This document shows, one piece after another, positions 26,101 through 61,141 of a DNA stretch of 64,000 nucleotides. The position numbers and the translations under genes are program-made. Below the pieces are notes generated by a model. It was not told where the DNA came from. It saw nothing but the letters and a program-made list of their open reading frames with translations, and did no database searches. The stretch comes from a virus. The stretch's first letter is position 1. Each line of letters starts with the position of its first letter. The stretch covers positions 1 to 64,000 of the IMG/VR virus record IMGVR_UViG_3300019360_000007. One strand, 5' to 3'.

Positions 26101-28631
26101 TGGCCTTTGAGATGGCTGAGAGTCTCGAAGTAAGCGAGAGTGACTTCCCCGCCGTGGATACCGTCGACCTTTCTCTTGATGGGGTCGTTGCGATTGGGCT
26201 GGAGAGCCTCGAAGACGAGAGCGAGTTTCTGGATGCTGCCGTTCTCTCCCAGAATGCTGTTGAACTTCTGTCTCTCGCTCTCCAGCTCTCCCTCAAGCAC
26301 ACCGAGCTGGTCGCGGAGCGGATCTCGCTGGGATGCTCCCGCGGCGACCGCCCTCGTCTTCGACGTCTCCTGCAGTCCTAGTCTTCTCGCCAAATCGGCA
26401 GCGTTGGCGAATCCGCTGGCGATGGCCGCTTGCCGCTCGACCTTGTCGATCTCGGCCTCCGTCCCCCTGAGCGGCCCGAGAGCTTCACCCAGCTCCCGGA
26501 AACTCCGCTTCAGGTCCTCGATGTCGAACACGAAGGACTGCTGTGGATTCTGGCTGTAAGTGAGCCGAAACTTCGTGATGTCCCTGGGGTCCGTCGTGAC
26601 GGCTCCTTCCTCGTTGAGCGGCTCGAAGGCCCTGACATTGTCGAAGTCTCTCTTGAGGAGTCCCCAGAGGACGTCGGCGTCTCCCTCGACGGCATTGAAG
26701 TAATCGAGGCCGACTCCGACCACGGTGTAGTTGGGGTTGAGCTGTTGGGGATCAATAGCCATCACGACGTTGGGAAAGCCCACGATCCTGGGGACGAAGA
26801 TCGGCTTGTCCGTGTTGCCGGGCATCACGCTCTGGAACACCTCCAGGGGGCGTGGCGGCAGATCGGGCCGGTTCAGCTTGATCTGCCAGATGGCACTCTT
26901 GCCCTCGGCCGGTGCCTCCAGCACGCCGGGGGCGTGGAACTTGGCCCTGCGGCAGGTCAAAACCAGATTCGTCGTGCATTGGCCGCCGAACGCGAACTGA
27001 TGGCTGATCTGCGAGATGTAGTAGTAGCAGTCGATGAACGGGATGTAGACAGGGTAGCCTGGTCGAAGTTCGGGACGGATCGGAATCGTGGCGCTCGCGC
27101 TGTACGTGTCCACGTTCGCGAGATCGAGTCGCGAGACGGCCATCCAGAAGAGAACCTTGGGATCCGTCTGATACGTGACGTCGAGGGAGGCCGCAGGGCG
27201 CCAGCCGAATTGCGCGACCAGCTTGTAGTCGACATACATGCCCCTCTTGAGCAGCTCTGCTCCCTCCGCGAGGCCGGTAAATCCGCCAATCCACACGCCC
27301 TTGACGATGGCGTAGGTTGCCTCAGGTTCCTTCTCGACGACCGAGATGTTGATGATGTCCTCGTCCTGGAGTCGGTAGTACCTGTTCGTCGACGTGTCCA
27401 GGTTGTAGAACGGAGGCTTGAACACGAGGTCGCCGTCGACGTCCTGGTAGAACTCGTAACCGGTCACGTCACACACGGCAGTGGCGAGGTCCATCTTGGT
27501 CTGGTACGTCGATTGCCATTCGTTCACTGCTCCAACCTCGGAGATCGCCTGTGAGAAGGCGAACATGTCCAGGACAGACAAGTCGACCAGCTCTCCATCC
27601 TGCCGAATCACCGGCGAGTAAACGAGGTCAGAGCCGAGGTTGGCGAGACCCAGGGACTTGGCCACGGACCATCGCGCAGAGAACGGATCTTTCTCTCGAC
27701 GCTGGGCAGACGGATCGCTGAACGTGGAGCTGGTCAGGAGACCCTGGATGTCACTCACGTCATGCTTCGCCAACCAAGCCTGCTGCGTGGCGTTGAACAA
27801 TCGACCGTTGACCCCGAACATGCGCAGGTTCTGGATACGTGTCTTGAACCTCTGTTCCCAGTAGAGGACAGCCATGTCGTAGATCTGGCGTCCCGCGGGA
27901 CCCGTCGATTCCGCGACGCTTGTCAGGTTCGATTCCTGATCTAGGGCGAATTCCACGCCCGCCGCAGCCCCGGCCACGTCCCTGTAGAGGGTATAGATGA
28001 TGGCGAACGGGTGCATGGAGTTGAAGACGTTCCCGACCAGGGTCGTCCGCGCCGGGTCGTTCGTCGGTCTCTCGCCGAGCTGCGCGGCCGAGGTGGCTAC
28101 GTTCTGGAAACGCCAGAAGTGCAAGAGAGACGCACACTGCAGGGAACCGTGGTAGAATCCGTCCGAGTACTCGTAGGTAACCTGCGTCACTACTCCGTGG
28201 AAAACTGGGTAATACGGGTAGGAGGCATACTTGGAGAGGTCAAGACGGTCATTGGCCGTCGGGTTGGGGAATGAGATGTCGGGGCTGGCGAGGTGGGAAA
28301 ACATCCCGCGCACGGGAAAGTAACCACGCATGAAGATGTGGACTTCAAGACCTGGGCGCAGGATGTTGTAGCCGTCGACGAAGACCTGCTGACCCTGCAC
28401 GCGGGGCAGAGTCAGGTTAATGTTCGCCGAGTGCGACCCGGGCTGTGTGCCCGTCTCGACGTTGAGAGAGGTCACGAAATGCTGGATGTCGACGCGTCCT
28501 CGACATCGGGGACAACCGGGGATGGACGTGTCGCCGTTGATGAACACCAGGGCGTCGGGTGTGTACTTGACGACCGCGCGGTTGTTGAGGCGCCACGTGC
28601 CCGCGTAGGGTCTGTTCTCGATGCCGGCCAT
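23151..28631 (-). CDS. Baseplate hub (gp27/gpD-like), 1826 aa, with internal peptidase M15-like domain
   Basis: YPVFHGVVTQV, YEFYQDVDGDLVFKPPFY, ATIPIRPELRPG...YYISQISHQF...TTNLVLT are hub-like; internal SGFR...YHSAGVAID...MGFY...FMHMDRR. Confidence 0.75.
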   Translation of the reverse strand: MAGIENRPYAGTWRLNNRAVVKYTPDALVFINGDTSIPGCPRCRGRVDIQHFVTSLNVETGTQPGSHSANINLTLPRVQGQQVFVDGYNILRPGLEVHIFMRGYFPVRGMFSHLASPDISFPNPTANDRLDLSKYASYPYYPVFHGVVTQVTYEYSDGFYHGSLQCASLLHFWRFQNVATSAAQLGERPTNDPARTTLVGNVFNSMHPFAIIYTLYRDVAGAAAGVEFALDQESNLTSVAESTGPAGRQIYDMAVLYWEQRFKTRIQNLRMFGVNGRLFNATQQAWLAKHDVSDIQGLLTSSTFSDPSAQRREKDPFSARWSVAKSLGLANLGSDLVYSPVIRQDGELVDLSVLDMFAFSQAISEVGAVNEWQSTYQTKMDLATAVCDVTGYEFYQDVDGDLVFKPPFYNLDTSTNRYYRLQDEDIINISVVEKEPEATYAIVKGVWIGGFTGLAEGAELLKRGMYVDYKLVAQFGWRPAASLDVTYQTDPKVLFWMAVSRLDLANVDTYSASATIPIRPELRPGYPVYIPFIDCYYYISQISHQFAFGGQCTTNLVLTCRRAKFHAPGVLEAPAEGKSAIWQIKLNRPDLPPRPLEVFQSVMPGNTDKPIFVPRIVGFPNVVMAIDPQQLNPNYTVVGVGLDYFNAVEGDADVLWGLLKRDFDNVRAFEPLNEEGAVTTDPRDITKFRLTYSQNPQQSFVFDIEDLKRSFRELGEALGPLRGTEAEIDKVERQAAIASGFANAADLARRLGLQETSKTRAVAAGASQRDPLRDQLGVLEGELESERQKFNSILGENGSIQKLALVFEALQPNRNDPIKRKVDGIHGGEVTLAYFETLSHLKGQYLCGSVNGQYRYYSCSHPDPDMQGAPIIVFDDGDRAKARTRSTVRRAASALSNVLTGNIVGIGADLFTQLRELVPTLPGIDGWLDMPAEFDKLLGQTKTRGEAASRNMDATHAQRLLDITAAVNEVVNRILARSDYQEAVASSNGLIFANPQLFSGFRPEFEPSDSEAYHSAGVAIDVLFANQTFATAKDNGISPGPYDVAVNAIREEVARGFNEGLISGMGFYSIRPKGGKGPPSTFMHMDRRDDATAAEIQQRNQDKREQYLNGQLNPPKNPKERKKFFKRLGLDPDTGAVDEPKAPFPDTRSFWAEPSAEANNWVTRFGARTKRGKKGEREDIPLIPSPGRITLSDSPPPTTVASNANSPEQPAQEAPELENPPSVTTRPAFTPTDRLVVQFKSEVTRPNQNLRYPEAEIGVGKCRVGLNIAQGPQRTPRVLTTDQIHTISFMRHEGSKFTEVVGTSQTAGSITFNGQGVSKQITQMFLDAAQDLDDPSKTVQEVFGPVYEQIGLDVGTVDLPIYDNGDLVGLTLVELPPLEDIIAPLSPDQVPASAVQVISQQLGDAPDLIEIPDLRISDVAMLPGYKPFGAQKDDGRAWTRAVEALAANFAVGIARVIEQKFDEVVAAALDPATGKDMRLSEIRGDFNEILSKTFGLDDAIAAVVSFFTEDKAVKEGKKDLPLHSPVFPVSDEKGYQHYGAFRYGRGLSVEPGGTFAYIHSGQDPFRNVTAQTAEEFLREFTLATEGRTSPGANLLSGVRNAVSDFLAKFLGERETPLSQNLGQEGGEATIDASRVVDRAVADDRERADLEESAENLALTVSALGTTPTGRDVLREMLAANGDDPNLVDQESFDISDTQFVRNFIGFAANYGKSPVFQTTISNAAYKLADLTAHLAARAGDSCVCRGSLADVVLAAYGREHFVAVEDIDQGGQKAEAFHSEEIIKRTSQHALQQRRYRGEVLDGASPDAKAFNNNNAGPAATPPEGS

Positions 28632-37645: not shown

Positions 37646-38290
37646 CTATAGCCTGGCAAGCGAGACCAGCCAGCGGCGGGCAATGCGCGCGGCCACGCCC
37701 TCCGCGGCTCGCGGAGAGTCCCCAGGACCGGCACCTTCGCCCCTCGCCGCCCTCGCCAGCGGGTTGCCTTCCACGAGCCTCCAAGCCTCCAGGGCTCGCC
37801 TCATGGCCTTCCGCTTCTCGGGGTCCTTCTCGGACCGCAGACGACGTGCCAGCTCGGTCGGCGGCACGTTAATGAAGGTGGCCAGCGAATCAGAAGATCC
37901 ACCTCTCGCGAGCGACGCCTCTCGCGCCGCGATCTGCCGCCGCAGGCCGGGATGCAGGATGTTCCAGTGGGCGCGGATCCAGGCGGCGTCCGCCCAGACA
38001 CAGGCGTCGTGCTCGCCGCACAGCGTCGGGGTCCATCCCACGTTCTCGCTCGTGGCCATGACCAGACAGTACGCTCCGTCGCGCGCCATCTCCAGGACAT
38101 CGTGCGGAGGCAGGTGTCCCGTCTCCTCCGCGAACTCCCTCTCCGCCGCCGCGAGCGGGGACTCGCCGTTCTCCAGGTGTCCTCCTGGAACGGACCAGAG
38201 CCCGACATCGTCGGCATCAGGCCCCGGTGCCCGTCGAACGAGGAGAACGACCTTCCCGTCAGTGAGCCAGAGCCCTGCGCGCTCGATCAT
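37646..38290 (-). CDS. Nudix hydrolase, 214 aa
   Basis: Nudix box WSVPGGHLENGESPLAAAEREFAEETG; VLLVRR and EHDACVW flanking motifs. Confidence 0.88.
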   Translation of the reverse strand: MIERAGLWLTDGKVVLLVRRAPGPDADDVGLWSVPGGHLENGESPLAAAEREFAEETGHLPPHDVLEMARDGAYCLVMATSENVGWTPTLCGEHDACVWADAAWIRAHWNILHPGLRRQIAAREASLARGGSSDSLATFINVPPTELARRLRSEKDPEKRKAMRRALEAWRLVEGNPLARAARGEGAGPGDSPRAAEGVAARIARRWLVSLARL

Positions 38291-40703: not shown

Positions 40704-42404
40704 CTAACCGGAGATCTGGGCCCCGATGCGGGGCGGCTCAATGCCCAAGTCCAGGAGACGTCGCCTGAGAAAACCCTCGTCGAGCCCCTTCGGATCTGAC
40801 TGACGCACCACGAGTGTGGCGTATCCCTCCTCCCGAGCTCGCCGCAGTTTGAGAAGATCGAGCCGAACGCGACGCTCAAAGTTCTCAGGGACCTTGTGCC
40901 AGTACGGGATGAACTCCTCGTGCTGACGCCCGTGCGCCTCGACCAGGAGCTTCACGAGAGGAAAATAGCCGTCGTAGCGCAGAGGATAGTTGGTCTCCGG
41001 GTTCCTGATCCTCGTGTCCGTGTACTCCCACTCGTACGCCAGACCGCCGAGGACTTCGGCCACCCGGTCGAGCACCCGCTTCTGAAAAGCGAGACGGTTG
41101 CGGGTGGGGAGACCAAGCTGGCGGCAGTACCGACGGACGGCAAGTTGAGAACAGTCGCGCGCCTCGGAGGCTTCCGCCACGAGGACCCTGCCTGCGGAGT
41201 CCATGAAAGGGCGAAGTTGCTCCTCCGTAAGGTCCAACCGAAGCGCAGTCTTGTCCCTGATGACGGACCCTGTCGCCACGAGAAGGGACTGGGGAAACAG
41301 AGACTTGTAGGCCACATGTGCGTGGGCATTCTGGACGTGACTGTTCAAAGCCTCAGCCCTGTGGCCACACAGGCGGCATGTGACGTAGTCTTCGGGTTCG
41401 CACTTGCCTTCCCACTGGGCTTCGATTTCCTCAAGTTGGCGGGCGGCCCGGCAGTCATCACAGCGCGTCTCGTGCGTCTCGGGAGCAAGAAACGCCGACA
41501 CCTCGTGTAGGACGCGACAGTCGGGACACTCGATCTGCTTCGTAGCCCCCGCATGCGAGGACCTTTCCCATGACTCGGATTGCGCTTGAGACCTCCGCTC
41601 AGTCAAGGAATGCGCCCGGATCGGGACGTCGCCATGCTTGTTACGGTACTCGTCGGCCGTCAGCCCGTGCGCCTTGAGGTGCGTCGCCAGGGTCTCCCCA
41701 CGAAACTCGCACTCTCGGCATCGCACGTAGTCGTCGTTCTCGATCTTGTCGACCCACCGGAGGTCCTCCTGGCCGTCCCTCCAGACGCGGTGAGCCTCAT
41801 CCCCAGCAGCACAGCGATGACGCACGTGGGAGGCGAGTCCGCGTACCCCCTCGCACCGGAATCCACAAATCGGGCACTCCCGATCAGGATGACGCTCGGC
41901 ACCCCTGCACTCCGAGCACAGAAGCCGGAGAGAGCGCGCAATCGAAACTCGATTTGCCCGGTAGATCTCGCCGCACCCCGAACACAAGACGTCAATCTCT
42001 TCAAGATCCCGAGGGCCCGAACGCGCCTGATTGTGCGCTACCGCCTTACGACGTTGGAGGTCCCGCGCACGCCCCTGCATGAGGGTTTCGCCGAATTCCT
42101 CCCCCCACCACCGCCTGACGACCGAGAAGTGAACCCCCGTGTGCTCAGCCACGCTCTTGAGAGAAAGCTCCCCATGGAACATAGCCACCGCCGTGATTCG
42201 TGCCCGGTCGAGTTCGACGCCCTTGAGACGGCTCCTCTGGCCACTCTGGGCCGCTCTTTTACGGGCCTGCAAGCCCTCCTCGCCGTGCACCTCAACCCAC
42301 CACCCCCGGACTTGATCCCGAGGAATGCTGAGGGACTGAGCTGCGTCGACGAGCTTAACGCCCTCATCGAACATTTGGAGGGCGCGCTGACGGATGCCGT
42401 CCAT
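40704..42404 (-). CDS. Free-standing putative homing endonuclease: 2x HTH, multiple Zn fingers, C-terminal PD-(D/E)XK-like nuclease, 566 aa
   Basis: Two HTH repeats ending V(R)GWW/VRRWW; CxxC pairs; DYVRCREC...LATHLKAHGLTADEYR (Ros/MucR-like finger); NPETNYPLRYDGYF...LLVEAHGRQH nuclease motif; codon usage visibly less GC3-biased. Confidence 0.7.
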   Translation of the reverse strand: MDGIRQRALQMFDEGVKLVDAAQSLSIPRDQVRGWWVEVHGEEGLQARKRAAQSGQRSRLKGVELDRARITAVAMFHGELSLKSVAEHTGVHFSVVRRWWGEEFGETLMQGRARDLQRRKAVAHNQARSGPRDLEEIDVLCSGCGEIYRANRVSIARSLRLLCSECRGAERHPDRECPICGFRCEGVRGLASHVRHRCAAGDEAHRVWRDGQEDLRWVDKIENDDYVRCRECEFRGETLATHLKAHGLTADEYRNKHGDVPIRAHSLTERRSQAQSESWERSSHAGATKQIECPDCRVLHEVSAFLAPETHETRCDDCRAARQLEEIEAQWEGKCEPEDYVTCRLCGHRAEALNSHVQNAHAHVAYKSLFPQSLLVATGSVIRDKTALRLDLTEEQLRPFMDSAGRVLVAEASEARDCSQLAVRRYCRQLGLPTRNRLAFQKRVLDRVAEVLGGLAYEWEYTDTRIRNPETNYPLRYDGYFPLVKLLVEAHGRQHEEFIPYWHKVPENFERRVRLDLLKLRRAREEGYATLVVRQSDPKGLDEGFLRRRLLDLGIEPPRIGAQISG

Positions 42405-42531: not shown

Positions 42532-45500
42532 CTAACCTCCGAGATTCGAGCGCAGGTTGAACGTGATCACAATATAGAGCAAAGGAAAAATCGGTTGGTA
42601 GAATGCTTCCACCTCCACAACGGTGGGGTCGTTCGTTGTGCGCGCCTGGATGCCGGTGAACGCCGCGATGATCTCGGCGTTCTTGAGCGCCTTCATGGTG
42701 GTCGCGAGCTGGCCCTCGATCTCGGACAGGACGCCCGGCAGGAACTTGATGCCGATGAACCTGTCGAGGTCGCGCCGCGCTGCCCTCTGGACCTCGTCGG
42801 CGATGGTGATGACCGTCGGGAGCTTCGTGAGGATGTTCGTCGGATCGGTCGTGAGTCCCTGCCGGACCCGGATGACCGTCCCCCGCTGCTCCATGACGGT
42901 GACGCCCTGCACGGCGACCTGGTTCTGCTCGACCGCGTCGAGTTTGCGGGCCAGCTCGTCGAACCCGACGATCCGAGCCCTCGTCCACGGGGTCGCCACG
43001 TCGATGTTCGGCGACGCCCTGTTGCCCGCCATGGCGGCCGCGAGGTAGGTACCGTCCACCAGGAACTGCTTGAAGTTCCCGAGCGCGTCCTGGATCGTCA
43101 GGGTGACGATGTCCGGGTACACGAGGCGGATGCGCGTGTTCTCGATCTGCTGCGCGATCCCGCCGACTTCCGTGGGCTGCGTGCCCGAGGCCACGCCGAT
43201 GATGCCGGTCCGCTCGGCGCGGAACCGGATGCTGGACTGGATGTCGCAGTGGTTGCTGAGCTGGAGGAACAGGTCGATGTCGTCGCCCCGCATCGGGGTG
43301 ATCGTGTCGAGCACCGCGCCTCCAGGCAGAGAACCGCGCAGGTCGTTGAGCGCGTCGCTGTAGCTCTGCGTGCTCGCCTGGTTGCTTCCCGGGATCTTCG
43401 GCACCTGCTTGATGCCGAGGACCACGGCTCCGTTGAGGAACGCCAGGAACGCCGCGAGGGAGACCTGGTTGTCCGGCGTCGTGTCCCCGTAGTTCCGCTC
43501 CACGGCCCTCTGGCTCGTGAAGAGCATCGTCTCGAAGTCCGCCGCCGTCTTCGCGTAGTTGTAGGTGATGAAGTAGGAGTCCCCGACGGCGGGCTCCTGG
43601 CCCCCGCGGTCGAAGGTCTCGACGATGGCCGTGTCGCCCTGCGGGATCGACGATCCCTCGGTGTTCGCCACGATCAGCTCGAGCCCGGAGATCGAGTTGA
43701 CCGGGATGTTCGCGTCGGTCGTGACGAGCTTGCGCACCTGGAACGTGAACGAGGCCCCGGCCCCCGTCGGGTAATCGGCCCCGCCCGTGCGCGGGAGAAT
43801 CGTGAACACGAGACCCGTCACCGTGTCGCGGTAGCTCTGGCTGATCATCCCGTCCTGGCCCACGCCGCTGTTGAAGCACGACGTGTTGGCCGAGCCCGAC
43901 CCGTCGACGGGGTCGCTGCTCGTGACGAAGAAGCCCTGGAACCCCGACTCTCCCGCGGCGCCCTGGCCTGACGTGACGCCGAGGCCCGTCCCGGTGAGCA
44001 GCCAGTCAGCCGTGGTCGCGGTCTCGAACAGGATGTTCGACGAGGACCCGAGCCCGACGATGTTGTTGGCCTGGCTCTCGATGAACAGGAACTCGTTGTT
44101 CGCCGAGTCGCGCTCGACTCCCGCGAGTGCCTGGGCCGCGAACCACGTCAGGTCAGGCATCTGGTAGTCGAGGATGGCCCCGTTGATCGTCGAGCTGTGG
44201 TGCATCATCAGCGCGGAGGCCACGAGCTCGGGATCGACCGTCGAGCGCGCCGCGGTCGCGCCCTCGGAGAACCCGAGCACGTTGTTGGCATTGCCGTTGC
44301 CGAGGGTGATGGCCGAGTTCGTGGTCACGATCCCGCTGACGAGGCGGATGCCGGCACCCTCCTGGGCCACCACGGAGGCCGGGAGACCGGCCCCGACCGC
44401 GGCGTCCTGGATCTGCTTGAGCACCGTGTTCGGGAACGTGATCGGTCCGAGCGGCACGTCGGCCTGTCCGGCCGCCGGGATCGCCGCGCCCACCGAGTCC
44501 TTGAAGACGACGGTGAACGCGGTCCCGTCGATGTTCACCTTCCAGACGTTGTTCTGCGGGTTCACGCCGCCCGACCCGTAGAAGCGCACGCGAGGCTGGC
44601 CATCGCGAGCGTCAGCGAAGGTACCGGCCGGGACTTGGCCGTCCTTGAAGCCGACCTCTCCGAACAGGGACGCGGGACGCAGCGTGGCCTCGATCCCGGC
44701 GAGGCCGACAGCCTTGGGCTGCAGGCCCGTCTCCGTGACCGCGTTCGTGCCCTGCGTGATCAGGCTCGTCTGCGCGACCTGGCTCTGCGGCTCCAGCGAG
44801 CCGGAGCCGGGGAGGACGCGGTTGCGCATGATGATCCGGTCGTAGATGAGCCGTCCCGACGTTCCCGACACCGTGAAGCGGCGCGCGATGTCGCCGTCCA
44901 CGATCTTGGTCTGCTCCTGGCTCGGCAACGCGTCCGTGGACAGGCCGCAGATGATGGCGAAGTCCTCCGCGACGGTGGCGCCGTCGAGGAATTCCCAGAC
45001 GCCTCCGCCGAGACCGGAGCCTCCCGTGAGTGTCGCGCCCGATACCGGCAGGCGGATGGCGGTCGAGCTCGCCAGGGTGATGAAGTTGCCCGTCGGACCG
45101 GGCACCGCCGCCGTGATGTCGACGACGGCCGAGGTGCCGCTCGAGTTGTCCGCGGTCACGATACCCACGAGCCCGTTCAGCGCGTCGGAGATGGCTGCCA
45201 CGAGGGACGACGCCACCTGCACCGTCGTCGCGCCGCCCACGAACGTCGCTCCCGAGACGGGCAGGCGCACACCGGTCGACGAGGCAATCGTGTAGGTGTT
45301 GCCGATCACGCCGGGCGTGTCGGACCAGACGGTCACCGTGGTGCTGGTGCCTCCCGCGTTGTCGGCCGACACCGCGGCCGCCAAGCCGTTGCCGAGGTCG
45401 TTGATGGCGGCCACGATGCTGCTCGCGACCGTGAGGTTCGTGCCCACGCCGCCCGCCAGCGTCGGACCGCTCCGGATGAGCCTCGTCGCGCTGCTGCTCG

Positions 45501-48500
45501 CGAGGACGATGGTGTTGCCGGCGTTCCCCGGCGTGACGGCCGTGATCGTCACGACCGCCGCGACGACACCGGTGAACACGAGGGCGGGGAGAGACGCCGT
45601 GATCGACGCCCCGAGCGAGGTGGCGACGGTGGTGTTGTCGCCCACGCCACCGAGCAGCGTGCCCGCCGAGAGCGTGATCCTCGTGGCACCAGTCGACTCC
45701 ATCAGCAGGATGCCGTTTCCGACGGTCCCCGGCGTGAAGGACATGATCGTGACGACGTTGCTGGTGCCGCCCGCGTTGGTCGCGACGACTCCTCCCACCA
45801 GACCGTTGCCCGCGTCGGCGATGGCTGCCACGAGACTCGTGGCGGCCGAGATGTCGTCGCCCACGCCTCCCGTGAGCGTCGCGCCGGAGAGCACGAACCT
45901 GCCCGCGGCGGTCGTGCTGAGCGTAATCGTGTTCCCCACGGCTCCCGGCGTGACGGCCGTGAGGACCATGGTCGTGGCCCCCGAAGACGTCGCGGTGACG
46001 TCCACGGCGAACGAGTTGGCGACGTCGTTGACGGCCGCAATCGCGTCGTCGCGCGCGGACGTGTTCGTGCCCAGGCCGCCCGCGAGCGTCGCGCCGGCGA
46101 AGGTGAGGCGCGCCGGCGCGGTCGACACCGTGGAGATGGAGTTGCCGCCGGTCCCGGGCGTGATCGCCCGGAGGTCCACCGTGGCCGACGTGCCGCCCGT
46201 GTTGTGCGCCTGCACCGTGCTGGTCAGGCCATTGAGAGGATCGAGGATGGCCGCAACGATGGCGGTGGCCGTCGTGATCTCGTCGCCGACGCCGCCGGCA
46301 AACGTCGCGGAGATCGTGACGGTGCCGTCGGAGGACAGGTTGGCCACGGCGTTCGCCGCCATGCCCGGCACCGTCCACGTCACCGTGACGTCGTTCGGAC
46401 CGGGGCCGACCGCCGCGCTCGAGAACGCGGCGAACGAGTTGAGCGGGTCGTTGAGGGCGGCCGCGATGTCGGCGGCGATGGCCGCCGTCGTGCCCAGCGT
46501 GTTGTCGTAGTCGTTCGCGCCCGGAGTACGAGGACCGCCGGCCGGGACGAGGACGTACGGACCACCCGCGATGGCGCCGGTGTCGATGGTGATCGTCGCC
46601 GACGAGGGGGAGGCCGTCACCGTGATCGTCGCCGTCGCCTGGGTGCCAGCATCGAAGTTCAGTCCGCCCGGCGTCGTAACGTTGTCCGCCGTGAGCGGGA
46701 TGCCGGCGATGGTGATCGTGTCCCCGTAGAGCACGCCCGTGCTCGGGAGCGCCGTGGTGACGACGGTCAACGTGCTGAGAGCACGCACGCCCGCGAAGAA
46801 GTCGTCCGCGCCCGAGGTGCGGGCGACGTCGACGGGAGTCAGCACGTTGCCGTTGAGCGTGAGCGTGTCCGCGGCGACGACCGGGTACGGGGCCGCCGAG
46901 GCCACCCGGACGCCGCTGAACCCGACGGTTCCGGTCGCGGCCGTGCCGACGTTGAAGTCGAGGCCACCCGGCGTCAGGGTGTTGCTCGCCGTGAGGGTCA
47001 CGGGGCCGCCACCGACGACGGACGTGTCGATGGTGATCGTGTCCCCGTACTGGACGCCCATTAGAGTGGCCGTGCCCGACGCACGGGTGCCGACGTCGAA
47101 CTCGTTCGCCGCCGGTGCCCCCGAGACGCCGAGGAACACTTGGCCGTCCACGGTGACCGTGTCGCCTGGGATCGGCCCGGCGACGGTGATGGTGCCCGTC
47201 GCGCGCGTGCCCTCGTTGAAGTTCAGGCCGCCCGGCGTCTGGGCGCCGGCCGCCGTGATCAGGACAGGTCCGCCGCCGGCATCGATGGTGAAGGTGTCGC
47301 CCGGCTGGACGCCCATCGGCATGAGCGTCGCGCGTGCTTGGCCCGTGTCGAAGTTCTGCGCGCCCGAGATCTGCGCGAGATCCCCCGTCAGGGTCACGCC
47401 GTCGATGGTGACGGTGTCTCCGAGAACCGCGAGGGCCGAGGTCACGGTCCCGGTGGCGAAGGTGCCGAGGTCGGTCGGGGTCGCCGAGAACGTGAACCGC
47501 ATGCCTCCGTCGGCGTTCGCCGTGCACGTGATGTCCATGCCGGAGAAGCTGGCGGGGAGCGCCCCGATGGCCGTCTGGAGCGCGGAGTCGACCGCCGCCG
47601 CCATGGTCGTCGGCGACGTGTAGGTTCCCGGGGCGATGGTCGCCGTGACGGGACCCGTGGGTCCGTTGGTCACGCCGGTGTAGTTGAAGACGAGCTTGTC
47701 GTAGCGCCCGGCCGTGATCACCGTCGACCCGAGGAACCTCGTCGTCCCGTCGAGGAAGGGGTTGTTGGCGACGAGCTTCGCCTCGGCGTTGATCGCCTCG
47801 ACGTACGCGTCGGCGTTCACCGCCGTCTGCGAGGGCACCGTGACGGTGACGACGACGCCGTCCACGGTGAACGACACGTTGTCGTTGATCCCGCTGAGGA
47901 TGTCGTAGGTCGTCTTGCCGGAGTCGTCGGTGTACTGGATCTCCTCGCCGAGCAGGCTCGCGTAGAACCCGAGCCCCTGGATCCCGTGCGGGGCGGAGAG
48001 GTCGATGCCCGCCGCTCCGCCCGCCAGCGCGCTGCTGTCGATGGTGAAGCGGGCCCGGTCGGACGCACCCGAGACGAAGAAGTACGGGCCGGCGCCCGGC
48101 ACCGTGAACTTGGCGATGGTCGCGTCCTTGTCCGCGAACTGGACCGTGACTGTCTCCTCGACCGGCCCCTGCGTGCCGCCCTCGAAGTGAACGTCGGGCG
48201 TGAGCTCGCTGCCGGAGGGGAATTCGATGGTCACGCCCGTGAGCGCGGGACCCTTGCTCCCGAACTTCGGCGTGTAGATCGGGTTGCCGTTCTTGTCGAA
48301 CAGGAAGTACGTGCCGATGCCCGACGGTCCGCTGGTCTCGACCTGGACCGTGTACTCCTCGTCGACCATGATGTTGTACCAGAAGGTCGCGAAGACGTCG
48401 GCACCCACGGGAACCGGGTTCTCGAGCGTGATGATCGTCCCCTCGACCTTGGTCACCGACACGGCGCCCCGGTTGAGCGCGTCCTCGATGCCGAACCCCC

Positions 48501-49974
48501 AGAACGCCTGGACCAAGTTCGGGTTGTTGGTCGGCAGGTCGATGCGGGTGTTCGAGACCGAGAGGAACACGTCCTGCCCGAGCGGCGTGTCGCGCCCGTT
48601 GCCCGTCGTCGGCTGCGCGGGGAGACGGAACTGCGTGCGGCTCTCCACGGCGGGAATCACCGTGTCGACGACGACGACCTCCGTCGGCGCCATGAACCAG
48701 CGGTTGTCGATCAGGAGGGCCGAGATCTGCGTGGGCCCGAAGGGCGGAGCCCCCGGAGTCGTGATCCCGGGCGAGATCAGGAAGGCGGCTCCCCAGACGA
48801 TCAGGTCGTCCTTGAGAACGAAGTCCGCGCCCTCGATGAAGTCGTTGTTGCCGGGCACGATGCCGCAGCGGATGACCTCCGTGACGTTGATGTTCGCGAG
48901 GTAGTCGAACGTGTCCTGCCAGGTGTTGAAGAAGTATTGGATCGTGACGGTGTCGCCGACCGCCGGGGCGAAGGGCAGCGTCACGGCCCTGTTCTGGCCG
49001 TCGACCTCCGTCGGGATGACCTGGACCGAGTTGACGCGCACGGTCACCTTCGACGTGTCGGTCGTGGTGATGCCGCCGTTCGAGCCGTCGACGATAGGCC
49101 CGTTGAAGGTGAAGAACGTGCGGTTCCGACGCGTGTTCTGGTTCTGCGTGAAGCCGAGAACCGAGTTGGCCGTGCCGTTCCCGATCAGGAGACCGTTGTC
49201 GGCGACGAGGCGCACCGCCGTGAGGCCGAAGTTGTTGGTGTAGGTCGACGCCACCAGCGACGTGCCGGCCGCGGCCCCGTTGATCAGGGAGACCACCGTG
49301 GCGGCCGTGACGCTGCCGGTGGGGAACGTGGCGGTCACGACCTGCTGCGTAGTTGCCGACTGGTCGAAGTCCACCGTCACGAGGAACTGGTTGTTGGAGG
49401 AGGTGAACTCGTAGGCGTTGCCGATGGCCCCGTCGAGGATCGCTCCTTGCGTGGACACCTGGTCGGACAGGTTGTCCGTGATCTGCGTGTCGGTCCGCTT
49501 GAAGAAGTAGGTGACCCGGACGTCGTCGCCGAAGTCGGGCGCCGTGCTGATCTCGATCACGCCGATGTCGGCGCGGGCCACGCTCAGGACCACGTCGGGG
49601 CGACCGTTGATCGTGACCAGGATCGAGCTGGGGTCCGTGGCCGTCTTGCCGGAGCCTGACCCGTCCGTGATCGGGTAGTTGCGGACCCGGATACGGCGGC
49701 GCTCACCGTTGAAGTCGCCGAGGATGACCTCGCCGGTCATCGTGATCTCGACGACCGCGCGACCGGTCTCGTCCTCCTGGGGGACCTGCTGGTCGACCGA
49801 GCTGCTCGATCCGCGGATGACCTCCAAGTCTCGCTGCTGGAGCAGCTCGTTGCCCGTCCCGATGAGCACCGGAATGCGGACGCCCGCGAGGACGCCGGAG
49901 ACCGGCGAGTCGAACAGGGTTCGGGTATAGACGCCAGGTGGCGCGTAAATGGTCCCAGGAAAATCCGCGGGCAT
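42532..49974 (-). CDS. Giant tail sheath protein, 2480 aa
   Basis: N-term YAPPGVYTRT...IPVLIGTG and C-term sheath core (AFLNGA, ERTGIIG, RIRLVYP, YLAAAMAG, GVTVMEQ...RVRQGLTT, RFIG.K, DPTVVEVEAFYQPIFPLLYIVITF); AAAGGA RBS. Confidence 0.92.
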   Translation of the reverse strand: MPADFPGTIYAPPGVYTRTLFDSPVSGVLAGVRIPVLIGTGNELLQQRDLEVIRGSSSSVDQQVPQEDETGRAVVEITMTGEVILGDFNGERRRIRVRNYPITDGSGSGKTATDPSSILVTINGRPDVVLSVARADIGVIEISTAPDFGDDVRVTYFFKRTDTQITDNLSDQVSTQGAILDGAIGNAYEFTSSNNQFLVTVDFDQSATTQQVVTATFPTGSVTAATVVSLINGAAAGTSLVASTYTNNFGLTAVRLVADNGLLIGNGTANSVLGFTQNQNTRRNRTFFTFNGPIVDGSNGGITTTDTSKVTVRVNSVQVIPTEVDGQNRAVTLPFAPAVGDTVTIQYFFNTWQDTFDYLANINVTEVIRCGIVPGNNDFIEGADFVLKDDLIVWGAAFLISPGITTPGAPPFGPTQISALLIDNRWFMAPTEVVVVDTVIPAVESRTQFRLPAQPTTGNGRDTPLGQDVFLSVSNTRIDLPTNNPNLVQAFWGFGIEDALNRGAVSVTKVEGTIITLENPVPVGADVFATFWYNIMVDEEYTVQVETSGPSGIGTYFLFDKNGNPIYTPKFGSKGPALTGVTIEFPSGSELTPDVHFEGGTQGPVEETVTVQFADKDATIAKFTVPGAGPYFFVSGASDRARFTIDSSALAGGAAGIDLSAPHGIQGLGFYASLLGEEIQYTDDSGKTTYDILSGINDNVSFTVDGVVVTVTVPSQTAVNADAYVEAINAEAKLVANNPFLDGTTRFLGSTVITAGRYDKLVFNYTGVTNGPTGPVTATIAPGTYTSPTTMAAAVDSALQTAIGALPASFSGMDITCTANADGGMRFTFSATPTDLGTFATGTVTSALAVLGDTVTIDGVTLTGDLAQISGAQNFDTGQARATLMPMGVQPGDTFTIDAGGGPVLITAAGAQTPGGLNFNEGTRATGTITVAGPIPGDTVTVDGQVFLGVSGAPAANEFDVGTRASGTATLMGVQYGDTITIDTSVVGGGPVTLTASNTLTPGGLDFNVGTAATGTVGFSGVRVASAAPYPVVAADTLTLNGNVLTPVDVARTSGADDFFAGVRALSTLTVVTTALPSTGVLYGDTITIAGIPLTADNVTTPGGLNFDAGTQATATITVTASPSSATITIDTGAIAGGPYVLVPAGGPRTPGANDYDNTLGTTAAIAADIAAALNDPLNSFAAFSSAAVGPGPNDVTVTWTVPGMAANAVANLSSDGTVTISATFAGGVGDEITTATAIVAAILDPLNGLTSTVQAHNTGGTSATVDLRAITPGTGGNSISTVSTAPARLTFAGATLAGGLGTNTSARDDAIAAVNDVANSFAVDVTATSSGATTMVLTAVTPGAVGNTITLSTTAAGRFVLSGATLTGGVGDDISAATSLVAAIADAGNGLVGGVVATNAGGTSNVVTIMSFTPGTVGNGILLMESTGATRITLSAGTLLGGVGDNTTVATSLGASITASLPALVFTGVVAAVVTITAVTPGNAGNTIVLASSSATRLIRSGPTLAGGVGTNLTVASSIVAAINDLGNGLAAAVSADNAGGTSTTVTVWSDTPGVIGNTYTIASSTGVRLPVSGATFVGGATTVQVASSLVAAISDALNGLVGIVTADNSSGTSAVVDITAAVPGPTGNFITLASSTAIRLPVSGATLTGGSGLGGGVWEFLDGATVAEDFAIICGLSTDALPSQEQTKIVDGDIARRFTVSGTSGRLIYDRIIMRNRVLPGSGSLEPQSQVAQTSLITQGTNAVTETGLQPKAVGLAGIEATLRPASLFGEVGFKDGQVPAGTFADARDGQPRVRFYGSGGVNPQNNVWKVNIDGTAFTVVFKDSVGAAIPAAGQADVPLGPITFPNTVLKQIQDAAVGAGLPASVVAQEGAGIRLVSGIVTTNSAITLGNGNANNVLGFSEGATAARSTVDPELVASALMMHHSSTINGAILDYQMPDLTWFAAQALAGVERDSANNEFLFIESQANNIVGLGSSSNILFETATTADWLLTGTGLGVTSGQGAAGESGFQGFFVTSSDPVDGSGSANTSCFNSGVGQDGMISQSYRDTVTGLVFTILPRTGGADYPTGAGASFTFQVRKLVTTDANIPVNSISGLELIVANTEGSSIPQGDTAIVETFDRGGQEPAVGDSYFITYNYAKTAADFETMLFTSQRAVERNYGDTTPDNQVSLAAFLAFLNGAVVLGIKQVPKIPGSNQASTQSYSDALNDLRGSLPGGAVLDTITPMRGDDIDLFLQLSNHCDIQSSIRFRAERTGIIGVASGTQPTEVGGIAQQIENTRIRLVYPDIVTLTIQDALGNFKQFLVDGTYLAAAMAGNRASPNIDVATPWTRARIVGFDELARKLDAVEQNQVAVQGVTVMEQRGTVIRVRQGLTTDPTNILTKLPTVITIADEVQRAARRDLDRFIGIKFLPGVLSEIEGQLATTMKALKNAEIIAAFTGIQARTTNDPTVVEVEAFYQPIFPLLYIVITFNLRSNLGG
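45001..47466 (-). repeat. Nested repeat block inside the sheath: 7 N-half repeats then 7 C-half repeats
   Basis: aa ~837-1159: 7x AT.T.T....GDT.TI.G...(N/D)F..G; aa ~1160-1658: 7x A....AAI.D..N.....V...A.TPG..GN.I.L.S......GATL.GG. Confidence 0.85.
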
Positions 49975-49975: not shown

Positions 49976-50704
49976 TCAGCTTCCTTTCAGTGCGGCTCGG
50001 AAGGCGTCGAGGGAGATCCGCGTGAAGTGGAATCCGCGACACGGAGTTCCACGACGAATCGACTTGGCGACGGCATCGAAGGACAGGCCAAGGGCCTTGG
50101 CTGCTTCGGTCGCCGACGAAAAAACGGAACCGTCGGAGCGTCGGACGGGATTCGCGTTGCCTTCACGAATGCGACGCTTGTGTTCCTCGGTGAAGGCCTG
50201 TCCCGTATGGGCGGCAGACATCTTGGCGCGCGTCTCTTCCGATGGCACACGACCCGAATGGCTCGTGGACATTCGCGCCCTGCTCTCCGCGGAATGCCTT
50301 CGTCCCTTCCAGAAATCACCGCGCCCATTCTCCAAGTTGGCGAGCTGTCTCGCGGAGACCCCGCGAGCCTTGGCCGAGGTCGACATCCTCTTGCGCGTCT
50401 CCTCGCTCGCGACAACTCCGTCTCCGCCCTTGGTCAGGTTGTAACCATGCGCGCGCTCGGCCGAACGGTAGAGGGCGATATAGTGCCGCTCCCGTTCGTT
50501 GGCCTCGGCGAGGGTCGCGATTCCCTTCTCAAGCACTTCCCAGGCCATGGCGGGTCCGTACTTGCGAAGAGCCGCGGAGAAATGGCGACTCCTCGTGCGA
50601 GCCAGGTAGAGGTGCTCGATCTTGCGCTGGTCGAGACTGCGCCGCGTGATCCCGACGTAGACCTTCCCGCTGGGCGACGTGACCCTATAGACCACGTACG
50701 TCAC
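49976..50704 (-). CDS. GIY-YIG homing endonuclease with NUMOD3-like repeats and C-terminal HTH (NUMOD1-like), ~242 aa
   Basis: VVYRVTSPSGKVYVGIT, R..EH, EANERE, GYNLTKGG, repeats SEETRKRMS/HSAESRARMS/SEETRAKMS/TEEHKRRI, FSSATEAAKALG. Start reassigned to GTG 50704. Confidence 0.88.
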   Translation of the reverse strand: MTYVVYRVTSPSGKVYVGITRRSLDQRKIEHLYLARTRSRHFSAALRKYGPAMAWEVLEKGIATLAEANERERHYIALYRSAERAHGYNLTKGGDGVVASEETRKRMSTSAKARGVSARQLANLENGRGDFWKGRRHSAESRARMSTSHSGRVPSEETRAKMSAAHTGQAFTEEHKRRIREGNANPVRRSDGSVFSSATEAAKALGLSFDAVAKSIRRGTPCRGFHFTRISLDAFRAALKGS

Positions 50705-50884
50705 GTCCGCAGGACGCTCCTTCCCGCTCGCGCTCGACTCGGAGGAGGAGCACGTCGCGTCGGGCCACGGGGTCGCCGTGGCGAGTTCGGTGGAGGTCTG
50801 GAGCATCGAGGTCGGCTGTTCGCTCGGGATCACTCCCGTCTGTCGGGCGCACTTCTCCTGCGAGCGCGTGACGCCCTGGGTGCA

Positions 50885-51065
50885 GTCGCGGATCGCGCTC
50901 GGTAGAGCGCCTTGGTTCACGTCTCCGTGCCCGTCTCCGTCGGTCTGTCGGTTCACGTCTAGCCGTCCCCTCGCGGGGAGGAAGCGTTCTGCGGGCCTGC
51001 TAGGCAGGCTGCGTTCACATCTCGTCTGTCGGTCTGGTCACGTCTGGGTCCTCCCTGCGGGAGGC
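50885..51065 (-). ncRNA. Structured non-coding element, copy B (candidate cis-regulatory RNA)
   Basis: Four hairpins including CCTCCCC-GCGA-GGGGACGG (50963-50981, GNRA loop) separated by AGAC(G/C) repeats; colinear with 36525-36722. Confidence 0.5.
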
Positions 51066-52951: not shown

Positions 52952-53971
52952 CTAGGGCTCGTCGTCCTCGTACTCCTGGAGAGCCTGGACGAGGAGACCG
53001 CGCGCGACAGCCTCCAGCGGATCGCGGGCCGCCCTGATCTCGCTGACCTCGATGGGAAAACGCCTGCGCTTCTCCTCGAACACCTTCTTGAAGAACTCCA
53101 GGAACCCGCCAGCCTTGCTCGTGCCCCCCGAGACCACGATGGGGATGGCCTTCGGCAGGGCGAACCGGCTGCGCACCTTCTCGAACTCGCTCGCGATGGT
53201 GTCGAGCGTGTACTCGATCAGGTTCTTGTAGTAGACGACCAGGGCCTCCTGGTCGCGGTCGGTCGGGTGCAGGAGATCGAGACCCTTCTCCTTGAGCGCG
53301 CACGTGCGGGCCTGGGTGGAGCCGACGCTCCTCGCGGCCCCGGCATCGATCCAGTCTCCTCCGCGACCGACGCTCGCGGTGAATCCCTCGACCGTGTTGA
53401 TCGCCAGCGCGATGTTCGTCATCCCGGCGCCGTAGCTCAGCGCGACCCCGCTGAATCCTTCCTTGGCGCACTCGCTGTAGACGATGGCCATTGCCTCGTT
53501 GCCGGGGACCGCACGGTAGCCGCACTCCTCCACGATCCTCTGGAGAACGCCTCGGTGGTAGATGACGTCACGCGACGGGTCATCCACCGGCGCGGCGGGC
53601 ACGCTGAAGCAGCAGACCTCGCGCTCCTCTGCGGGATCGCCCAGGACGTGGCGCACGAGGACACCGAGGATCTCGAGCGCGTCGACCTCGCCCGCCGAGA
53701 CGAGGCCAGACTGGAGCGGTCGCCTGACCTCGGCCCCGAGCATGTTGGCCATGTCGTAGGCCGCGTCGCCGACGATCACGAGCCTGTCGTTCTTCTCCAC
53801 GTAGTTCACGTTGGAGAGCCGCAGCATCTTCCGGTGCTCGCGAGGGAAGTCGATGAAGGCGTCGCGCATCCTGTTGGTCACGACGCCGTCGCCCGTACGA
53901 CGGGCGGAGACCACGTTCATCGTCCCCAGGTCTAGCCCCCTTCCGGGGATCGGTCCTTCACGCTCTGCCAT
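52952..53971 (-). CDS. Actin-fold ATPase (MreB/ParM/FtsA superfamily), 339 aa
   Basis: Phosphate-1 GLDLGTMNVV, RRPLQSG, FSVPA, connect-1 NEAMA, phosphate-2 ALSYGAGMTNI, GGDWID, adenosine VVSGGTS, DPLEAVARG. Confidence 0.85.
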   Translation of the reverse strand: MAEREGPIPGRGLDLGTMNVVSARRTGDGVVTNRMRDAFIDFPREHRKMLRLSNVNYVEKNDRLVIVGDAAYDMANMLGAEVRRPLQSGLVSAGEVDALEILGVLVRHVLGDPAEEREVCCFSVPAAPVDDPSRDVIYHRGVLQRIVEECGYRAVPGNEAMAIVYSECAKEGFSGVALSYGAGMTNIALAINTVEGFTASVGRGGDWIDAGAARSVGSTQARTCALKEKGLDLLHPTDRDQEALVVYYKNLIEYTLDTIASEFEKVRSRFALPKAIPIVVSGGTSKAGGFLEFFKKVFEEKRRRFPIEVSEIRAARDPLEAVARGLLVQALQEYEDDEP

Positions 53972-59561: not shown

Positions 59562-60455
59562 TCAGATGAGGGCGTCGAAGACCGAAGCCACGGCGTCTGC
59601 GATCTCCTGCCAGTGGTCCTGTCGTGCTTGGTAGGACTGATCGATCTGCACCCCTCCAGTCCCGCCAGATGTGATCCAGTTGGTCAGGTTGTCGGGGTTG
59701 TCACCGCCGAACTCGTCCTCGGCGGTGGCCACGCGGACAGGGATCGACGGGACGACGACGGCCGCAATGGCATCGCGAACCCGCTCCTTGAGCGACTGCG
59801 ACGCACCGCCGCCGATCAGGATCTCGCTGTCGGTGAACCCGTGGAAGGCCACCGCATACTGGAAGCCTCGACTGCCGATGGAGTCAAGGAGCGGGAACGA
59901 GCGCCGAGAGATCTCGGTGCTCGTGATGTGCCAGCGGTCGAAGGCGCCCCCTCCCGATCTCCAGCCCTTGCAGCGCCACGACGACACCCCCTTGGCTGCG
60001 AGCTGCGACGCCACCCTCTCGGCCTGATCGTCGGTCCAGTTCTCGAGGGCACCGCCGTGTGGAGCGAGCGCCACGAGGCCCGTGTGGATCCCGTCGTCGT
60101 CGAGGCGCTCGAGGAGGATATTGGCGTTGTCGTCGAAGAGCGCCGTCGTGGTCTCTGCGGCCTTCTCCCCGCCGTGGACGGCCACGGCGGCGTCGACCTC
60201 CGCCTCGTCGGCCGGCGGGATCGATGCCTCGACGAAGTTGATCGTCAGGTTGTCGTCTCCCGTCTCGACCGAGGTGAGCGTCACGCTCAGGCCGAGTGCC
60301 ACGATGTCGTCGTGGAGCTTGCGTCCCTCGACCTTTCCGTTGGCGGTGTCGTTGGCGATGCTGTACAGGAGGATTGCCATCAGAAGATCTCCATCACGAT
60401 GAGGCGCCTTTCCGTTGGCGGTGTCGTTGGCGATGCTGTACAGGAGGATTGCCAT
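59562..60455 (-). CDS. Poly-gamma-glutamate hydrolase (PghP/DUF867)-like domain fused to an N-terminal virion-type module
   Basis: ALAPHGGALENWT, HITST, AVAFHG, ILIGG, GDNPDNLTN, GVQID motifs; ATG 60455 overlaps upstream TGA (second ATG at 60380 from the duplication). Confidence 0.78.
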   Translation of the reverse strand: MAILLYSIANDTANGKAPHRDGDLLMAILLYSIANDTANGKVEGRKLHDDIVALGLSVTLTSVETGDDNLTINFVEASIPPADEAEVDAAVAVHGGEKAAETTTALFDDNANILLERLDDDGIHTGLVALAPHGGALENWTDDQAERVASQLAAKGVSSWRCKGWRSGGGAFDRWHITSTEISRRSFPLLDSIGSRGFQYAVAFHGFTDSEILIGGGASQSLKERVRDAIAAVVVPSIPVRVATAEDEFGGDNPDNLTNWITSGGTGGVQIDQSYQARQDHWQEIADAVASVFDALI

Positions 60456-60483
60456 CAGAAGATCTCCATCACGATGAGGCGCC
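60332..60483. repeat. Perfect tandem duplication, period 75 bp (77 identical nt)
   Basis: 60332-60408 is identical to 60407-60483; duplicates the stop/start junction and MAILLYSIANDTANGK. Confidence 0.95.
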
Positions 60484-61141
60484 GTTCCGTGAGCCTCGCC
60501 CGGGCCGTTCCTCCCAGGACGCGCCACCTGATCTCGTAGGTGTGCGACGCCTGCGTGGGAGCGATGTCGAGGAACTGGACAACCCCAGGACCGTCGGCGT
60601 TGCCGAGGAGGCCTAGAATACCGGAGACACTGAACTCCAGGGCCCGGACCGTGTCTGCGATCTGCGCGCCGTCATTGTAGAGGGTGATGAGGAACTCGTC
60701 TCCGTCCTGGACGTTGAACGTCCCGTGAAATAGAATCAGGACATCTCCTCCGTTGGGAGTCACCGTGCGCGTCATCTCGGGGATCACCACGAAGCTGGCG
60801 CTGGTGGTCGTCGGAGAGCTGGTTGTCCCGACCACTTGGCTCCTCACCGGAGCGCTCCCGACCATGAACACGCGTGCCCAGCCCGTGGTCGTCCCGTTCG
60901 TGTTGACCCAGAGCTGGCCGGTACCGGCCAGCGTCCTCTGGTAGACGTCGCCCTCGTTGCCCGCGAGGAGCGCGACGTTGGGGTCGGCGGTCCCGCGCTT
61001 GATGTTGTCCGCCGTGAGGATGCCGCCGCTCTGCAAGGTCAGATCGACGGACAAGACGATGCTGTCCGCTGCCACGTCCACGGTGCGGGGGAGCCCCGTC
61101 GTGTCGTCGTCGAGCAGGAGATTGTCGATTTGGCTGGCCAT
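60455..61141 (-). CDS. Putative virion fibre/appendage protein, 228 aa
   Basis: GTADPN....GNEGDVY...LWVNT....GW fibre-type motif; C-terminal beta-sandwich TTTSASFVVIP...HTYEIRWR; N-terminus paralogous to the 537-aa protein. Confidence 0.6.
   Translation of the reverse strand: MASQIDNLLLDDDTTGLPRTVDVAADSIVLSVDLTLQSGGILTADNIKRGTADPNVALLAGNEGDVYQRTLAGTGQLWVNTNGTTTGWARVFMVGSAPVRSQVVGTTSSPTTTSASFVVIPEMTRTVTPNGGDVLILFHGTFNVQDGDEFLITLYNDGAQIADTVRALEFSVSGILGLLGNADGPGVVQFLDIAPTQASHTYEIRWRVLGGTARARLTERRLIVMEIF

Follow-up and report, generated by a model that had tools for sequence, protein, structure and literature searches.

A phage tail sheath protein in which one small domain is probably nested in itself to a depth of seven

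Background

Insertion of one domain into another is a recognised but rare feature of protein architecture, which usually runs to two to four levels and involves unrelated domains. In contractile sheaths (T4 gp18, diffocin CD1363 and their relatives) such nesting of two to four unrelated domains has been described as a 'Russian doll' (PMC6088184, PMC9230969). The shortest modelled sheath comprises 321 amino acids (aa) and the type 2 sheaths 426-713 aa; the extra domains lie away from the tube, and adhesion or cementing of the tail has been suggested as their function (PMC9230969). In this work we have analyzed the putative tail sheath gene P0001 (positions 42532-49974, minus strand; 2480 aa) in a stretch of 64,000 nucleotides (nt) of viral DNA, positions 1 to 64,000 of the IMG/VR record IMGVR_UViG_3300019360_000007, and we propose that its product carries one domain of about 118 aa inserted repeatedly into its own copies. 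The whole stretch is referred to as the window, and all parts of P0001 given below lie on its minus strand.

Self-insertion of a homologous domain has been published for proteins of other kinds. The flagellin of G. thiophilus has an outer domain D4 with a duplicate of itself, D5, in one of its loops (PMC11532411). The Si3 insertion of the cyanobacterial RNA polymerase β' subunit contains eight SBHM domains, SBHM-2 to -5 being built from distant parts of the chain, and seven SBHMs form an elongated body of 150 Å; the arrangement is not presented there as recursion (PMC10895346).

P0001 shares features with each of these systems. As in the Russian-doll sheaths, the extra domains appear to be inserted into one another, so that the outer ones consist of an early outgoing and a late returning chain segment, away from the tube-binding core; unlike those sheaths, which combine unrelated domains and mostly have a few hundred residues, P0001 would nest one domain in itself seven times within 2480 aa. 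As in the D4/D5 pair of flagellin, a surface domain of a helical-polymer subunit has apparently been duplicated into a loop of its own copy, with an out-and-back course of the chain, but the depth is seven and not two, and the host protein is a phage sheath and not a flagellar filament. As in Si3, copies of one small domain are arranged in a non-tandem manner, several of them split by others, and would form an elongated body in a loop of the host protein. The two differ in host and probably in fold: Si3 belongs to a cellular protein and has four discontinuous copies in mixed order, whereas P0001 would have six split copies in concentric order. A search of the open-access literature gave no self-nest deeper than the flagellin and Si3 cases, and none of seven levels. 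Shallower self-nesting has thus already been published, and what would be new here is the depth of seven. An earlier note on this DNA, made from the sequence alone, had known of no described case this deep; with regard to depth its remark holds, but self-insertion of a homologous domain as such had been reported before at lesser depth (PMC11532411, PMC10895346).

Results and discussion

Organization of the repeat block

The block of repeats in P0001 (aa 839-1652) was cut at recurring end motifs into seven N-units, N1-N7 (aa 839-1159; 40-52 aa each), followed by seven C-units, C1-C7 (aa 1160-1652; 66-73 aa each), the shortest ones being N3 with 40 aa (N1 is equally long) and C5 with 66 aa. A hidden Markov model (HMM) of 118 states was built from 80 contiguous single-copy domains of unrelated non-sheath proteins, with no P0001 sequence in it. 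On P0001 it gave, in this order, six matches to the N-half only (12.7-31.5 bits; HMM positions ~2-49; aa 838-1110), one end-to-end match (aa 1110-1230; 94.6 bits) and six matches to the C-half only (37.6-56.5 bits; HMM positions ~43-117; aa 1225-1653). The top domain score in 200 shuffles of the block was 5.0 bits, and the N-half/C-half pattern is far beyond chance. As judged by this model, the block consists of copies of one domain of ~118 aa, an intact one in the centre and six split ones around it, the outer copies being discontinuous, with their N- and C-parts separated by the inner ones. The domain has no Pfam family, and the PHROGs family phrog_28344 is matched weakly in P0001 (E 0.0049, aa 1451-1510).

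The earlier note had placed the block at 45001-47466, which corresponds to aa 837-1658 of P0001, and had taken it for seven N-halves followed by seven C-halves that begin at about 46500. The pattern was found as described, with the N7/C1 junction at nt 46497/46498, but the units are not 7 + 7 independent halves; they make up six split copies and one intact copy. The motifs quoted in the note are likewise present: TPGGL occurs in N2, N4 and N6, RT.GA.D in N5 and N7, NSFA in C1 and C3 only, and NGL...GGTS in C2, C4 and C6, while C7 has NGL...SGTS. The note's proposal that mirror halves make one domain agrees with the HMM of intact single copies, which splits over P0001 exactly as nesting predicts.

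From the outside inward, the N-half of the outermost copy, N1 (47341-47460; aa 839-878), is matched by the HMM over aa 838-880 (positions 3-48; 22.3 bits). It is followed by N2 (47209-47340; aa 879-922), matched over aa 878-922 with 15.6 bits, N3 (47089-47208; aa 923-962), matched over aa 922-962 with 31.5 bits, N4 (46945-47088; aa 963-1010), matched over aa 962-1013 with 17.1 bits, N5 (46789-46944; aa 1011-1062), matched over aa 1027-1062 with 23.9 bits, and N6 (46645-46788; aa 1063-1110), matched over aa 1065-1110 with 12.7 bits. The innermost, intact copy consists of N7 and C1 in contiguous order (46291-46644; aa 1111-1228); the end-to-end match covers positions 2-117 of the 118, and this copy resembles the single-copy domain of the relative P0121. 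On the way back C2 (46075-46290; aa 1229-1300), the proposed partner of N6, is matched over aa 1225-1301 (positions 43-116; 44.7 bits). The remaining C-halves are C3 (45865-46074; aa 1301-1370; 51.8 bits), C4 (45646-45864; aa 1371-1443; 37.6 bits), C5 (45448-45645; aa 1444-1509; 40.8 bits), C6 (45232-45447; aa 1510-1581; 53.0 bits) and C7 (45019-45231; aa 1582-1652; 56.5 bits), with N5, N4, N3, N2 and N1, respectively, as their proposed partners.

Source and similarities of the sheath gene

The window comes from a linear IMG/VR virus record of 83,087 bp with a CheckV completeness of 16%. Contigs bearing homologs of P0001 reach 618,736 and 647,917 bp, which argues that the source of P0001 is a huge uncultured phage. 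Nearly all long open reading frames (ORFs) of the window are located on the minus strand. According to the ORF list and its translation the ORF of P0001 has the 2480 aa given in the earlier note, and its ends match annotated sheaths in tblastn and BLASTP searches. The N-terminal region (47917-49947; aa 10-686) is collinear with the tail sheath of Tunturi_5 (BLASTP, 30% identity over 677 columns; E 3e-55, with aa 10-659 as the matched part), and the same protein is found by tblastn over aa 293-2475 (E 1e-36). The conserved C-terminal region (42538-43701; aa 2092-2479) gives tblastn matches to gp178 of Bacillus phage G (E 1e-25) and gp73 of Mycobacterium phage Phrappuccino (E 6e-22); in both phages the matched gene is annotated as tail sheath and lies upstream of genes for a virion structural protein, a chaperone and a tape-measure protein. 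Altogether 222 of 50,697 phage records match P0001 at some stretch (tblastn), and none of these 50,697 records is matched by the block.

Insertion site of the block in related sheaths

Both flanks of the block were projected onto 120 related sheaths (120 of 907 matches listed) and the spacing between them was measured. The upstream flank of the host domain (47461-47634; aa 781-838) ends in ...MRFTFSATPTDLG, and the downstream flank (44875-45018; aa 1653-1700) begins with SGLGGGVWEFLDG... and is collinear with the ...GYLEF... segment of the relatives that do not carry the block. The flanks are 0-5 residues apart in 38 of the 120 sheaths listed, 97-130 residues apart in another 37, where the inserts are single contiguous N-then-C domains, and 786-837 residues apart in 44, P0001 among them. 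For P0099 the projection of the flanks was wrong and one domain is visible, which raises the single-domain sheaths to 38 of the 120 listed. A homolog of 1665 aa in LR745208.1, a 485-kb uncultured phage record, has no domain between the flanks. Since the flanks are thus separated by zero, one or seven domains in related sheaths, the block is an insertion, and since it sits in what is otherwise a loop of 0-5 residues, its two ends must meet.

All 14 units are kept, with nearly constant lengths, in 44 of the 44 long homologs down to 47% identity of the block. First-pass HMMs made from P0001's own units gave exactly N7C7 in 34 of these 44; among the other ten, N-halves were missed in nine (in one of them also a C-half) and one had an extra C-like match upstream. 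Scans of IMG/VR (19 loci and 11 loci) gave only seven-layer or contig-truncated sheaths and no sheath with 2-6 layers.

Among the relatives P0046-P0121 the host domain (around aa 820-960) carries the single-copy domain at one of three points, which differ from relative to relative: before the GYLEF segment, after GYLEF, and before the preceding C.AN.DG.M.F segment. These three points imply repeated independent insertion or relocation of the domain. A single domain accepted at three points of the same host domain enters loops with ease and must have adjoining N- and C-termini of its own.

The same domain in other proteins

Another 250 proteins came from a search of 1.84 billion representative proteins with the block and from a search for the family of P0124. 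They were annotated with iterated N-half and C-half HMMs, an N-half being treated as an opening and a C-half as a closing bracket. The order of halves is balanced in 207 of the 250, with a maximum depth of one in 160, two in 40, three in five and four in two; tandem and mixed forms also occur, e.g. NCNC, NNCNCC and NNCCNNCC. Among the 43 exceptions 39 have a surplus of C-halves and four a surplus of N-halves; an unbalanced order with as many N- as C-halves does not occur. A predominance of C surplus is expected, as N-halves are short and harder to detect than C-halves.

In P0144, an ENA metagenome protein of 816 aa, the HMMs call five N- and six C-halves, and a sixth N-half can be recognised by eye at about aa 90-129; this otherwise unrelated protein probably holds a six-deep nest of a diverged version of the domain. 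Two subtypes of units seem by eye to alternate in P0144, on the N side and on the C side alike. In one family of proteins with a shared leader, lengths of 298, 406-411 and 521-522 aa go with two, three and four layers, respectively. The counts of N- and C-halves, which the earlier note expected to change together, do so: they are 0/0, 1/1 and 7/7 in the related sheaths listed, and 2/2, 3/3, 4/4 and a probable 6/6 in other proteins.

As a contiguous single copy the domain is known from the 38 related sheaths listed and from at least 80 other proteins. It is carried by a head decoration protein resembling gpD of lambda (P0368) and by a pectinesterase-like protein (P0305), and it forms two tandem copies in the DUF3383 protein P0370. 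In P0127 and P0128 (about 509 aa) a two-deep nest, NNCC, was noticed after the first motif of what looks like a class-I methyltransferase; the Pfam methyltransferase matches of this type of protein (P0127 alone was checked) are under the cut-off. The matches of relatives to phrog_28344 are much stronger than that of P0001, ranging from 7e-9 to 4.6e-27 over about positions 80-194 of the 205 of the profile, as in P0159 (E 5.2e-10) and P0260 (E 4.6e-27, with four stretches). This PHROGs family, listed as of unknown function, matches the domain; neither a function nor nesting is mentioned in its entry. In the other ORFs of the window, a scan with the HMMs of the two halves revealed no further copy of the domain.

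Order of pairing of the halves

The innermost pair is fixed, since N7 and C1 are contiguous and together equal an intact domain. Successive units are joined essentially without linkers. With no linkers, adjacent termini of the domain and block ends that meet in a short loop, and provided that each domain takes one N-half and one C-half, only a concentric pairing would avoid long crossings of the chain.

The whole block was modelled by AlphaFold2 from 44 aligned sequences with a mean predicted local distance difference test score (pLDDT) of 91.5 and a predicted template modelling score (pTM) of 0.58. Each 10-residue block except the last had a pLDDT of at least 83. In this model an N-half consists of three to four strands, and a C-half has two helices, first one of 12 residues and then a short one, each followed by two strands. 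An unbalanced native piece, N3-N7 with C1-C2 (aa 923-1300), was also predicted, in which N3-N5 would be orphans if C2 pairs with N6. N6 (pLDDT about 96) and N7 (about 94) were fully formed in this piece, and C1 and C2 had about 95, whereas N3, N4 and N5 dropped by 5-9 points, to about 86, 84 and 88, from the value of about 93 that they have in the model of the whole block. N6 and N7 were also the only N-halves predicted with their first strand (E144-149, E192-197), which was missing from N3, N4 and N5 although these have it in the full model (E91-96, E131-136, E179-184). Given C2, AlphaFold2 thus completes N6 and none of the N-halves before it, this being the opinion of a predictor and not a measurement. 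From the geometry of the chain and from this behaviour of AlphaFold2 we infer mirror pairing, N(i) with C(8-i).

Comparison of the block with PDB structures by Foldseek gave as the best match the sheath of cyanophage A-1(L) (E 2.5e-4, 139 columns), followed by other sheaths and by outer domains of flagellin and FliD with E about 0.1-2. Naming of the domain fold from these matches was dropped, as they are too weak. Two observations hint at flagellin, the weak Foldseek matches to flagellin/FliD outer domains (E about 1) and the relative P0368, which passes the cut-off of Pfam Flagellin_IN (PF07196) with 25 bits against 22.7. P0001 itself gave no match to Flagellin_IN at E up to 1, and homology to flagellin domains is therefore not claimed.

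The order of pairing was also approached through the similarity of units, by correlating the N-N identity matrix with the C-C matrix under all 5040 orders. For P0001 alone the mirror order gave r = 0.61 and ranked 43 of 5040 by identity, the parallel order ranking 2377; for the mean over the 44 homologs the mirror order gave r = 0.865 and ranked 27 of 5040, the parallel order ranking 2210. When the units of the two- to four-deep proteins P0122-P0128 were assigned to the classes of P0001, some assignments were consistent with the mirror order (P0123 to N4/C4) and some were not. A hand comparison of P0126, P0124 and P0122, in which new layers seemed to appear at mirror positions, was not upheld over 72 protein pairs and was not used.

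Assessment of the proposed topology

We put the probability of a self-nested, mirror-paired topology of seven levels in the sheath P0001 at about 0.85. The repeated self-insertion of a domain of ~110-120 aa, put forward in the earlier note, is supported by the contiguous copies in sheaths and other proteins as well as by the pLDDT of the AlphaFold2 model, and none of the three results named in the note as speaking against it was obtained. In such a topology a loop of one outer sheath domain would carry the ~118-aa alpha/beta domain, the one matched by phrog_28344. The chain would run outward through the N-halves of six copies, each giving three to four beta strands, form one complete copy at the tip and return via six C-halves, each with a helix and four strands, so that N(i) and C(8-i) make up domain i. 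The outcome would be a seven-domain arm on each sheath subunit, held by two antiparallel passes of the chain.

Several results weigh against this proposal. By BLOSUM the mirror order ranks only 340 of 5040, and the mirror signal comes mostly from the outliers N7 and C1, which are contiguous anyway; without them the rank is 55 of 720. The matching of subtypes in mirror order, on which the earlier note had relied, hence stands as far as the motifs are concerned and is statistically weak. When single-copy domains were mapped on the unit classes, the best N and the best C summed to 8 in 12 of 38 (about 5 expected by chance), but these sequences are related and not independent, and six of the 38 map to N3 and C7. 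The mapping of layer orthology over the 72 pairs was noisy: in family 1 three of the four comparisons between three and four layers agreed with the mirror order and most others with neither order, and among the 48 pairs of family 2, 28 agreed with neither order, ten with the parallel order only, eight with both and two with the mirror order only. The pTM of 0.58 for the whole block makes the relative placement of the domains uncertain, and the orphan N-halves of the unbalanced piece keep a pLDDT of 84-88, so that the contrast is a step and not a collapse. Among the 120 of 907 matches listed there was no sheath with 2-6 layers. As to the sheath itself, P0001 reached only 12.4 bits (E 0.16) with Pfam Phage_sheath_1C (PF17482), under the cut-off of 26.9; searches of PDB sequences with P0001 and with the family profile gave nothing useful, and neither Pfam nor PHROGs recognised a tube or chaperone among the neighbouring genes. 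Annotated sheaths fall short of the Phage_sheath_1C cut-off as well, with 15.2 bits for Tunturi_5 and 20.3 bits for phage G, and gp73 of Phrappuccino gives no match, which argues that the model does not cover this clade. We accept P0001 as a contractile-tail sheath on its BLAST similarity, its Pfam score being below the curated cut-off.

The alternative that survives best accepts the nest but not a free radial bristle: the domains would lie along or around the sheath and touch neighbouring subunits, and the cage formed in this way on the outside would lend stiffness to a very long tail. We regard it as possible, though doubtful. The low pTM beside a high pLDDT means that the model does not determine how the domains are placed relative to one another, cementing of the tail or help in adhesion has been proposed for the extra domains of sheaths (PMC9230969), and a strict number of seven layers in 44 homologs fits a structural role of fixed length; the occurrence of the domain on proteins that do not form helical polymers, one gpD-like and one pectinesterase-like, speaks against such a cage. 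Much less probable is pairing of the halves across neighbouring subunits (domain swapping) or in parallel order round a closed ring. Sheath subunits polymerise and exchange core strands in a handshake, which counts in favour of swapping; moreover, the units are 28-61% identical, so that any N-half may complement any C-half, and the mapping of layer orthology did not single out the mirror order. Such pairing is opposed by the fixed innermost pair with its end-to-end match of an intact domain, and by the near absence of linkers, owing to which each step of a parallel pairing would take the chain across a domain. The AlphaFold2 monomer is confident and completes N6, not N3-N5, with C1 and C2 alone, and in the comparisons of unit similarity the parallel order ranks 2377 and 2210 of 5040. 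Two independent tandem arrays, of beta-rich N-units and alpha/beta C-units with no one-to-one pairing, are very improbable: the block does look like two arrays from the sequence, the orphan N-halves keep a pLDDT of 84-88 and automated detection gave unequal counts in 43 of the 250 other proteins, but in the 38 sheaths listed and at least 80 other proteins an N-half runs on directly into a C-half as a single contiguous domain, the HMM of that domain splits over P0001, N- and C-units are equal in number in sheaths with 0, 1 or 7 copies and also in 47 balanced nests, 2-4 deep, of other proteins, the exceptions are nearly all of the C-surplus kind expected from a hard-to-detect N-half and at least one resolves by eye, both ends of the block must meet in a loop of 0-5 residues, and the orphan N-halves lose their first strand in AlphaFold2.

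Possible role and meaning of the arm

The arm expected from the nested topology may be a straight rod that points outward in radial direction, which would give the 'bristled tail' pictured in the earlier note. By analogy with the 150-Å body of Si3 we would expect its length to be of the order of 15-25 nm, as a rough estimate. With low confidence we suggest that the arm could serve reversible adhesion to polymers of the host surface or of a matrix, or could brace a long tail. We favour an arm exposed at the surface, for adhesion or spacing, because the domain is found also on head-decoration-like, pectinesterase-like/tailspike-like and other sheath-like virion proteins; the main alternative to it is an ordered outer brace.

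A broader and quite tentative reading is that the domain is a mobile, self-stackable block for double-stranded stalks of adjustable length on virion surfaces. It would enter loops of two kinds of sheath, of gpD-like and of pectinesterase-like proteins, and of itself (to depths 1, 2, 3, 4, probably 6, and 7); the depth would be a heritable setting of reach, with the sheath arm as its extreme.

What deserves attention in P0001 is that one domain would recur inside itself seven times, in a form conserved in 44 homologs down to 47% identity and with other depths in other virion-type proteins. If confirmed by structure, this would be a natural recursive, double-tethered rod, from which one could learn how to design stiff protein stalks with both ends kept side by side; it would also partly explain the size of the sheaths of huge phages and predict a visibly decorated tail in phages so far known from metagenomes alone. 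There is a practical warning in this, too, since genes of this kind would be taken for two unrelated tandem arrays by the usual programs for finding repeats and domains.

Age and growth of the nest

DNA repeats inside the block are just 60-86% identical over 21-91 nt, and a recent duplication of the block was rejected on account of this divergence. The homologs that share the seven-layer state are 47-79% identical; together with the diverged DNA repeats, this marks the array as old and stable. Whereas the outer copies end in a junction of the NF..G type, that of the innermost copy is closed and distinct, RTPG..DYDNTLGT. The closed form is also present in the single-copy domain of P0121, in the innermost copy of P0123 and in that of the leader-family proteins P0122 and P0124-P0126. 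Such a pattern fits a nest that grows when a new copy enters an older one where its N- and C-halves join.

Genes in the neighbourhood of the sheath gene

Directly upstream of the sheath gene lies a gene for a protein with GIY-YIG and NUMOD3 matches (49976-50956, minus strand), and directly downstream one for a 566-aa protein with matches to HTH_23 and to the Ros/MucR zinc finger (40704-42404, minus strand); these two nuclease- or regulator-like flanking genes may, by their domain matches, be insertions of homing endonucleases. Further genes on the same strand stand among those for virion proteins. A 339-aa protein of the actin fold (52952-53971) matches the whole profile of Pfam Volactin (PF25216; E 9.1e-74), and the virion gene block also contains a poly-gamma-glutamate hydrolase-like protein (59562-60527; PF05908, E 2.2e-14) and a NUDIX protein (37646-38290; E 4.4e-16). 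Two ORFs of the window, of 808 and 1043 aa, gave no PHROGs match, and the 1043-aa ORF no Pfam match either. Downstream of the sheath gene the minus strand holds very large ORFs of 3645 aa (9174-20111), 1826 aa (23151-28631) and 1181 aa (545-4090).

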